From positions 21,195 to 85,194 of the forward strand of contig NZ_CBFHLV010000006.1 in NCBI RefSeq assembly GCF_965656765.1: a stretch of 64,000 nucleotides of DNA, read 5' to 3'. A program made the position numbers and the translations under genes. Positions within the stretch are counted from its first letter, which is position 1, and the number at the start of each line of letters is the position of its first letter. Shown here in pieces: positions 25,401 to 33,989 of the stretch. Below the pieces are notes generated by a model. It made no database searches. It was given only the letters and a program-made list of their open reading frames with translations, and was not told where the DNA came from. This stretch comes from Marivita sp. (GTDB taxonomy: Bacteria; Pseudomonadota; Alphaproteobacteria; Rhodobacterales; Rhodobacteraceae).

Positions 25401-25940
25401 ATGCCCAGCCTTCTTGCAACCTCTACCGTTCACCCCGTTTGGCGCGATCAGGATGTCGGTGCTTTGATGCCTGCCGCGGTTCCATCGACGAGGCTTGATG
25501 ATGCGGTTGGGTTGGCTTTGGTCCAATGCGCAAAGAAACGCATGGATAGTGCAATGGGCTGTGGCGGAGGCACGGATTACGCGCGTCTCACATTCGATAC
25601 AGGTGGTTTGCGCGGTCTGTGTTTCGTCGCCGCTGATGAAGTGGCCCGCTATCTCGTTGCCCAAGGTGAGAACGCCAAAGCTGTCATGGTGAAACCAGCG
25701 GGGGGAAGCGATCACTATTTTACGATCGTGAACAACGGAAACGCCCAGAATTCCGTGGTCATCGACGCCACGTGGAAGCAATTTCAGGAAGGTACGGCGG
25801 ACAAACCGTTTTGCATCGCCGGAAAGCTAGGGTCTATCCGCTTTGTCTTTGGCCGCGATTCCGAGATCGTTGATATCTATGAGACCGGCATGACTGTTTT
25901 GGGCCAGTGGGACACCTACCAGTGTTTCCCTGATCCCTGA
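25401..25940 (+). CDS. Hypothetical protein with putative Cys-His-Asp papain/transglutaminase-like triad
   Basis: Strong AAAGGAG SD; GLC74 at start of a helix, SDH105YFTIV strand, VID122ATWKQF strand. Confidence 0.7.
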   Translation: MPSLLATSTVHPVWRDQDVGALMPAAVPSTRLDDAVGLALVQCAKKRMDSAMGCGGGTDYARLTFDTGGLRGLCFVAADEVARYLVAQGENAKAVMVKPAGGSDHYFTIVNNGNAQNSVVIDATWKQFQEGTADKPFCIAGKLGSIRFVFGRDSEIVDIYETGMTVLGQWDTYQCFPDP

Positions 25941-28478: not shown

Positions 28479-32704
<4,226 letters not shown>

Positions 32705-32712
32705 CCGCTTTT

Positions 32713-32775
32713 GTTCTCAAATGTTCTCATAAAGTTCTTTACAGATTGTTCTGAATGTGAGAACAAAGGAGCAAC
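32713..32775 (+). promoter_or_regulatory. Alphaproteobacterial LexA (SOS) boxes
   Basis: Exact GTTC-N7-GTTC (32723-37), near-match GAAC-N7-CAAC (32761-75), extra GTTC half-sites at 32713 and 32748. Confidence 0.8.
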
Positions 32776-32790
32776 AAGGAGGACATCATC

Positions 32791-32925
32791 ATGATGCAGC
32801 GGATCAAAACCACGCTTCACACGGCCAAGGCCCAAACCAATACAGCGCTTCTTCAGGATGCGCTTGGTGCCATGTCTTTGATCGTGATGCTGGTCGCAGC
32901 GCTGCATCTGCCGGTGCTTGTCTGA
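32791..32925 (+). CDS. 44-aa putative SOS-induced membrane microprotein
   Basis: AAGGAGG SD 8 nt before ATG; MMQRIKTTLHTAKAQTNTALLQDALGAMSLIVMLVAALHLPVLV; hydrophobic C-terminal half. Confidence 0.78.
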   Translation: MMQRIKTTLHTAKAQTNTALLQDALGAMSLIVMLVAALHLPVLV

Positions 32926-33048
32926 CTTTGTTTTCTGCCTGCGTGTTTTGCCTGAACGCTCATTCGCATCCTGTCCCAACTGATGCACCTGTTCCAGAAG
33001 GTTGCCTGCCTTCAGAGCGATGACGGCCCCCAACGAACACGTCACTTT

Positions 33049-33084
33049 ACCGCCGCCTTCTTTTGAAGTGCGGCGGTTTTTTTA
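33049..33084 (+). terminator. Intrinsic terminator
   Basis: ACCGCCGC-CTTC-TTTT-GAAG-T-GCGGCGGT followed by a T run. Confidence 0.85.
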
Positions 33085-33626: not shown

Positions 33627-33989
33627 ATGAGCTTTGATCCTGCGACTTTGGTCTATAACGAGGCAGGCCTGATCCCGGCGATCGCACAGGACGCGGTGTC
33701 GGGTGAAGTGCTGATGATGGCGTGGATGAATGCCGAGGCGGTGGCGAAAACGCTGGAGACTGGTCGCGTCACCTATTGGTCACGCTCGCGGGCCGCATTT
33801 TGGGTCAAAGGTGAAAGTTCGGGCCATGTTCAGGAATTGATCGCGTTTCGCGTGGATTGTGACCGGGATTGTGTGTTGGTGAGTGTCAATCAAACTGGGC
33901 CGGCTTGTCATACCAATCGCAGGTCGTGTTTCTACACCGAGGTGCAGGACGGCGCGGAAGCGGAGATATTGGCGCCGATGCGGCCGTAG
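33627..33989 (+). CDS. hisI: Phosphoribosyl-AMP cyclohydrolase
   Basis: GEVLMMAWMN, YWSRSR..W.KGESSG, DCDRD, ACHTNRRSCF. Confidence 0.97.
   Translation: MSFDPATLVYNEAGLIPAIAQDAVSGEVLMMAWMNAEAVAKTLETGRVTYWSRSRAAFWVKGESSGHVQELIAFRVDCDRDCVLVSVNQTGPACHTNRRSCFYTEVQDGAEAEILAPMRP

Follow-up and report, generated by a model that had tools for sequence, protein, structure and literature searches.

The short interval between recG and the next annotated gene in Marivita sp. (Rhodobacteraceae) raises two questions: whether the LexA-type sites and the small open reading frame (ORF) found there form a genuine SOS gene, and what the product of such a gene might do. The interval lies in a stretch of 64,000 nucleotides (contig NZ_CBFHLV010000006.1, positions 21,195 to 85,194), further referred to as the window; all coordinates below are those of the window unless stated otherwise. 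The initial annotation, made from the sequence alone, described an unannotated membrane microprotein of 44 amino acids behind LexA boxes, possibly an SOS division inhibitor. Judged from the sequence comparisons given below, positions 32713–33084, spanning about 370 bp, are best explained as a single small transcription unit, with a predicted transcript of about 310 nt. The unit is conserved across the Rhodobacteraceae and so is no local oddity. The features of the locus are listed in Table 1.

Table 1. Features of the recG-proximal transcription unit and its upstream neighbour (window coordinates)
Feature	Position	Strand	Remarks
recG (696 aa)	30614..32704	+	Pfam RecG_wedge, DEAD, Helicase_C, RecG_dom3_C; upstream neighbour
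First GTTC half-site	32713..32716	+	6 nt before next GTTC; array kept across genera
Exact SOS box GTTC-N7-GTTC	32723..32737	+	abuts putative −35 hexamer
TTTACA, putative −35 hexamer	32738..32743	+	cross-genus conservation
Variable promoter spacer, including fourth GTTC (32748–32751)	32744..32757	+	drifts within genus and family
TG-n-GAACAA (putative extended −10) and second LexA-type site GAAC-N7-CAAC (32761–32775)	32758..32775	+	
Shine-Dalgarno AAGGAGG	32776..32782	+	8 nt before ATG; invariant in genus
44-aa protein ORF	32791..32925	+	basic, polar N-terminal half; C-terminal transmembrane helix
Structured 3' RNA domain	32926..33045	+	fold z, covariance model, covariation
Intrinsic terminator	33051..33084	+	GC-rich stem, one bulge, then run of 7 T

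The small gene and its neighbourhood

The recG stop codon TAA occupies positions 32702–32704, and 86 nt separate the end of recG from the start codon of the small gene. Neither the promoter and terminator scan nor reading of the sequence revealed a terminator in this interval; read-through from recG could thus supply basal expression of the small gene. The start of recG overlaps the stop codon of ligA by 4 nt (ATGA, positions 30614–30617), and therefore ligA and recG probably form a single operon with translational coupling.

The initial annotation suggested conservation downstream of recG as a check on the gene, and the survey of related genomes bears it out. The ORF is intact in all 24 other Marivita genomes searched, with identity of 68–100%. 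Of 401 Rhodobacteraceae genera, 328 gave a hit of the peptide profile in a short open frame; since the compared genomes are related to each other, such counts are not independent. Among 37 related loci examined for synteny, recG is located directly upstream and on the same strand in 35, and in most of them a convergent NifU-like gene follows downstream. A second peptide profile matched none of 298 genomes from other alphaproteobacterial families.

Both the strong Shine-Dalgarno (SD) sequence and the 44-codon ORF (ATG at 32791, TGA at 32923–32925) are present as had been described. In the alignment of 20 Marivita loci the ORF is gap-free, and the variable columns are distributed over the three codon positions as 20/11/38. 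The pN/pS ratio equals 0.185 for the entire ORF and 0.108 for its C-terminal membrane part, and the sense frame has the lowest value of the six frames. The SD sequence and the start codon are invariant in Marivita, and an SD of the GGAG type is present in nearly all other genera. On these comparisons, the ORF is very probably a real translated gene. On account of this lowest ratio a chance ORF was rejected, and the confidence left to it is negligible. The crude gene caller selected another candidate, an antisense ORF of 114 aa (32701–33045). This was rejected as well: its pN/pS is worse than that of the sense frame, and the frame is not kept open in Marivita, where the longest stretch free of stops ranges from 38 aa to 133 aa. 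Indels of the tail, whose lengths are not divisible by three, also speak against it.

The usual form of the peptide in the family has 40 aa, and Marivita carries a four-residue insertion. The residues invariant in the family are D23, G26, L30, L38, H39 and P41 (Marivita numbering). The basic, polar N-terminus and the hydrophobic C-terminal half noted in the initial annotation are confirmed by the translation, where the hydrophobic stretch comprises the C-terminal 24 of the 44 residues. The AlphaFold2 model is a single continuous helix over residues 2–43 (mean pLDDT 76), with its highest confidence in the hydrophobic half. Under the positive-inside rule, R4, K6 and K13 would place the N-terminus in the cytoplasm, with three or four C-terminal residues outside.

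The term "unannotated" applies to the peptide in part. Pfam and NCBIfam yielded nothing meaningful for the peptide and 32 relatives (33 family members), so that it belongs to no family of these collections, but an identical protein is already deposited in the NCBI, UniRef and MGnify collections, its cluster being named "hypothetical protein [Marivita]". The literature on LexA, SOS, sRNAs and small proteins in Rhodobacter, Roseobacter, Dinoroseobacter, Ruegeria and Paracoccus was searched, and no published description of the locus was found.

LexA-type sites and the promoter block

The published LexA-binding motif of alphaproteobacteria is GTTC-N7-GTTC (PMC8565304). In the sequence following recG, GTTC half-sites start at positions 32713, 32723, 32734 and 32748. 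The exact box that had been placed immediately after recG is real, but it starts at 32723, since the half-sites at 32713 and 32723 are separated by N6. As for the extra half-sites claimed at the same time, the one at 32713 is conserved, whereas the one at 32748 falls in the variable spacer. Of 32 genera (one locus per genus), 30 have the triple array GTTC-N6-GTTC-N7-GTTC, and 31 have the exact box, directly adjoining TTTAC; in 20 Marivita genomes the box is invariant. The half-sites are phased at 10–11 bp, and this phasing is kept across genera.

The adjacent hexamer retains TTTAC in 30 of the 31 sites listed across genera, with mostly A as the sixth base, and TTTACA is located 17 nt ahead of GAACAA in 30 of 31 loci. 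The sequence at the latter position, TG-A-GAACAAAGGAGCAAC, includes the second LexA-type site. This site had been reported as a near-match overlapping the SD region; it is indeed present, but it abuts the SD sequence and does not overlap it. The pattern GAAC-N7-(C/T)AAC was found in all 32 genera, its second half-site being always C/TAAC and never perfect. In 30 of 31 scored loci from other genera, the third GTTC and GAAC are 27 bp apart, and the intervening sequence drifts. In the 20 Marivita genomes, only three positions vary within the 35 bp that extend from the first GTTC to TTTACA, whereas the adjoining recG codons are variable. The conservation of the promoter block exceeds that of the ORF.

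The consensus scan detected no σ70-type promoter in the region. From the cross-genus conservation we infer that TTTACA and GAACAA, separated by 17 nt and with TG two bases upstream, may serve as the −35 box and an extended −10 box, respectively; as a −10 box, GAACAA would be weak.

A scan with the promoter-block pattern matched at least 120 genome stretches, with one match per stretch. Among the matches listed, the labelled records come from genera of Rhodobacteraceae, Roseobacteraceae or Paracoccaceae with one exception, a metagenome-assembled genome labelled Abyssibacter (contig CAXPTW010000037.1, locus L104). Abyssibacter is a gammaproteobacterial genus, and the contig is probably mis-binned or mislabelled. 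In several other genera, the 5' UTR following the downstream box contains CAACAAA-n3-TTAAC, a CtrA-like half-site. The TTAAC motif is absent in Marivita, where the SD sequence directly follows the downstream box.

The exact pattern GTTC-N7-GTTC occurs twice in the 64-kb window versus 2.24 occurrences expected by chance, and the triple GTTC array occurs once versus 0.02 expected. A single exact box is thus within chance; the weight of evidence is carried by conservation. The other exact occurrence in the window (33817–33831) is located inside the coding sequence of hisI (PRA-CH), has a G+C-rich spacer and fits chance.

In the same genome, exact GAAC-N7-GAAC boxes with A-rich spacers precede recA, lexA, uvrA, dnaE2 and the imuA-like and imuB-like genes. 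A positional weight matrix (PWM) was built solely from these six boxes, and 6.86 million positions were scored with it. The downstream site TGAGAACAAAGGAGCAACAAG (32758–32778) scores 19.7 bits and ranks 9th of the 6.86 million positions. Eight sites rank above it, the six of the training set and two more exact boxes, which makes it the third best match outside the training set. It resembles the recA and lexA boxes of the genome. The upstream exact box (32723–32737) scores 13.6 bits and ranks 48th genome-wide, because its spacer, read on the GAAC strand, is T-rich, unlike those of the six canonical boxes. Given ranks 9 and 48, the site over the predicted −10 box, formerly a near-match, is therefore more LexA-like than the exact one. 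The two further exact boxes are located outside the window, at G000:C11:14821–14841 (− strand) and G000:C13:8473–8493 (+ strand). They score 26.9 and 26.4 bits, as high as the recA and uvrA boxes, and the crude gene caller places them in coding sequence.

With regard to this conservation and to the matrix scores, we consider it likely that the small gene is controlled by LexA. The points that speak against such control are the weak putative −10 box, the negative promoter scan, the T-rich spacer of the upstream box and the imperfect second half-site of the downstream one. The half-sites and their spacing are the same as in known alphaproteobacterial LexA operators, such as those of the R. sphaeroides recA and lexA promoters. 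The LexA site is reported to be present more than once in the R. sphaeroides recA promoter region, and the site is likewise multiple within one promoter region here. Unlike those operators, the one described here combines three phased half-sites of the same orientation upstream with an imperfect repeat of the opposite orientation over the −10 box, in a fixed 27-bp register. With a site on either side of the promoter, repression could be tight, as expected of a harmful product, and the always imperfect second half-site suggests tuned affinity.

The structured RNA tail

The stretch between the stop codon and the terminator (32926–33084, roughly 150 nt) was missed in the initial annotation. The genus alignment shows conservation of its nucleotide sequence, with visible compensatory changes and with indels whose lengths are not divisible by three. 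The tail begins with single-stranded UUUCUGCCU, followed by a closing helix formed by GCGUG (32941–32945) and CACGU (33039–33043). Inside it are two hairpins, 32966–32986 with the loop CCUGUCCCAAC and 32997–33013 with the loop UUGCCUG. The z-score of the fold equals −4.66.

Single-sequence folding of 36 tails produced one shared architecture for most of them: the single strand UUUCUGCCU, a long closing helix with an internal loop, two or three hairpins, and the GC-rich terminator. The hairpin loops across the tails are CCUGUCCC, CCUGCCUGUCC or CUGCCUCA. In an alignment-free test, the closing-helix duplexes of cognate strands had a mean energy of −21.3 kcal/mol versus −14.4 kcal/mol for non-cognate strands, and none of 10,000 permutations was as good. 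A covariance model constructed from Marivita alone detected the full-length tail directly after the ORF in 31 other genera, with E-values from 1e-15 to 1e-4. In this genome the same model found the tail as a single copy, with no paralogue. On the alignment fitted to the model, the paired cells amount to 95%, compared with at most 48% in slid controls, and compensatory double changes are seen in 28 of 31 pairs; being fitted to the covariance model, this alignment leans towards structure. For the terminator stem (helix 6), the paired fraction is 99%. G-U combinations exceed A-C ones in the tail pairs (44 vs 11), which favours the + strand for the fold.

The family-wide MAFFT alignment analysed with RNAalifold recovered the terminator alone, since the alignment was too ragged. 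The simple terminator scan called nothing at 33051–33084, the bulge and long loop being the probable cause, although the terminator is clear from folding and covariation. A search of Rfam returned noise with E-values of 0.55 and above, far below the gathering scores, so the tail matches no Rfam family. Pairing of the tail with the SD region or with the whole 5' UTR, as in hok- or tisB-like locking, was considered and rejected, as no covariation was observed (p = 0.32 and 0.33, respectively).

The motif CUG[CU]C[CU] (CUGYCY) occurs 3.6 times per tail versus 0.5 expected, and 72% of the motif bases are unpaired. Possible targets of the loops were ranked in one genome with crude gene starts, and the ranking is a lead only. 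At its top are an ABC permease, two TRAP DctM transporters, PntB, an Mrp antiporter, a Band-7 protein, kynureninase and a short-chain dehydrogenase; the best partners are mostly transporters with ribosome-binding sites of the GGGACAGG type. No division or SOS genes are among the top partners in this one-genome ranking with crude gene starts. The leader of a fused TRAP DctQM gene (G000:C47, about 35 nt upstream of the start at 25402, − strand; L180) contains UUUUCUGCCUG followed by GAGGGACAGGAGG, that is, the 5' single-strand motif of the tail and then a near-complement of it at the ribosome-binding site. This leader is possibly a target of the tail or a related regulatory hairpin.

Candidate functions of the unit

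Taken together, these features make the small gene a good candidate for a damage-induced membrane effector of the Rhodobacteraceae, possibly a brake on division. The best explanation that we can offer, by analogy and tentatively, is a LexA-controlled unit whose inner-membrane peptide delays septation via the late divisome. In an undamaged cell, LexA would occupy both sites and keep the promoter tightly shut. Upon DNA damage, RecA-stimulated cleavage of LexA would release the promoter, and a transcript of about 310 nt would be made. The peptide would then insert in the inner membrane, where its invariant D/G/H/P face may bind a late-divisome membrane protein of the FtsW/FtsI/FtsN group, and septation would be held back until repair is done, as with SidA in Caulobacter. 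The tail may stabilise the message or may be cut off as a base-pairing RNA presenting the CUGYCY loops.

A search of this genome (92% complete) for a SulA homologue found none, and hence a yet unrecognised SOS division inhibitor can reasonably be supposed; no description of an SOS division inhibitor was found in the literature on Rhodobacterales. The residue-specific invariance within the helix argues for a defined partner rather than general membrane damage. SidA of Caulobacter crescentus is a 29-aa SOS-induced inhibitor in the inner membrane that blocks division through FtsW/FtsI/FtsN (PMC4211646). Similarly to SidA, the peptide considered here is a very small alphaproteobacterial protein, predicted to cross the inner membrane once and encoded behind a site of the GTTC-N7-GTTC type. 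In contrast to SidA, it has 40–44 aa with a polar N-terminus of 20 residues, and its gene has two operator sites and a conserved structured RNA tail. No sequence relationship was detectable, as the family profile has no match outside Rhodobacteraceae among 298 other alphaproteobacteria. To our knowledge, no SidA-type gene has a structured RNA tail. A role in division is plausible by analogy, and it has to be weighed against the RNA tail, against the failure to find similarity between the peptide and known division inhibitors or Pfam and NCBIfam families, and against the lack of division genes among the best one-genome pairing partners of the RNA loops. The specific claim that the peptide is a division inhibitor, exerting a SidA-like block of late division proteins, is a possibility that we take seriously but would not call probable.

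A small hydrophobic helix encoded behind LexA-type sites that bracket the promoter could also be an SOS-induced toxin of the TisB/DinQ kind. Such a peptide would oligomerise in the inner membrane, lower the proton-motive force and ATP and drive damaged cells into dormancy, with the structured mRNA limiting translation. In Escherichia coli, TisB/IstR-1 and DinQ/AgrB are LexA-controlled type I toxin systems, and TisB forms an antiparallel dimer with a charge zipper. TisB and DinQ share with the Marivita gene the small hydrophobic helix, a few charged or polar residues in the membrane span, a heavily structured mRNA and the LexA-type sites. Moreover, the invariant D23 and H39 are 16 residues apart in the helix and could pair in an antiparallel dimer, and the SD sequence tends to be paired in full-length folds. 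However, no antitoxin RNA comparable to IstR-1 or AgrB was found upstream, antisense or as a second copy of the tail (a distant RNA acting in trans is possible): the gap to recG is just 86 nt, no antisense or neighbouring antitoxin RNA is evident, and the tail is single-copy with a structure specific to the sense strand (G-U 44 vs A-C 11). Covariation between the 5' UTR or SD sequence and the tail is likewise missing here (see the p-values above), unlike in TisB and DinQ. Across the family, the gene is inherited strictly vertically, in one copy and in conserved synteny, which is unusual for type I toxins, and the basic N-terminus of 20 residues argues for a fixed topology. We therefore regard a toxin of this kind as unlikely.

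The tail suggests another reading, in which the main product is a damage-induced 3' UTR RNA that acts in trans through CUGYCY pairing or titrates an RNA-binding protein, and the peptide has a separate or accessory role. There is a precedent in the same family: in the ccaF1-CcsR1-4 locus of Rhodobacter sphaeroides, a stress promoter precedes a small ORF, 3'-UTR-derived "cuckoo" sRNAs whose loops are C-rich, and a terminator (PMC8034643). The Marivita unit has the same composition, with a stress promoter (here predicted), a small ORF, a structured 3' RNA with repeated C-rich loop motifs and a Rho-independent terminator. The differences are that the promoter there is of the RpoHI/HII type whereas LexA-type boxes are found here, that the protein there is a soluble DUF1127 RNA-binder whereas a membrane helix is encoded here, and that the loop motif is CCUCCUCCC there and CUGYCY here, with no Rfam match to that family. 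Conservation of the tail extends as widely as that of the ORF, its covariation is clear, its CUGYCY motifs are in excess and mostly unpaired, and its best pairing partners in one genome, mostly transporters, share a type of ribosome-binding site. On the other hand, this target prediction comes from a single genome with crude gene starts, and the ORF is under clear purifying selection, which implies that the peptide is no by-product. As the principal function, the RNA is rather unlikely; as an additional one, it is compatible with the LexA-controlled membrane peptide and does not exclude it. A combination of both, a dual-effector SOS RNA specific to the Roseobacter/Rhodobacter family, is quite unlikely as a whole: it would encode a divisome-binding membrane peptide and release from its 3' UTR a multi-seed RNA whose CUGYCY loops reprogram the translation of genes of membrane transport and energy during DNA repair. 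The unit may also have nothing to do with SOS. The GTTC repeats and A-tracts would then be an UP-like element, or an element for another factor, in a constitutive or cell-cycle promoter, and the peptide would serve some membrane complex in a housekeeping capacity, as a small subunit or a regulator. In favour of this reading, a single exact box in the window is no more than chance would give, the spacer of the upstream box is atypical, the second half-site of the downstream box is never perfect in 32 genera, read-through from recG is possible with no intervening terminator, and some genera have the TTAAC-containing motif in the 5' UTR. But the half-sites, with their 10–11-bp phasing and 27-bp register, persist across genera in spite of a drifting spacer, the downstream site is the third best non-training match in the genome to the matrix of recA, lexA, uvrA, dnaE2 and imuAB boxes, and the TTAAC motif is absent in Marivita. 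Hence a non-SOS role appears very unlikely.

The Rhodobacteraceae include abundant marine bacteria as well as the models Rhodobacter, Dinoroseobacter, Ruegeria and Paracoccus. For this family, the unit of about 370 bp provides a concrete candidate for the damage-induced division inhibitor. For comparative work, it offers a clean instance of a composite LexA operator and, likewise, of a structured RNA joined to a small protein. Should both parts prove active, a single transcript would connect DNA-damage signalling with the membrane and with post-transcriptional control.
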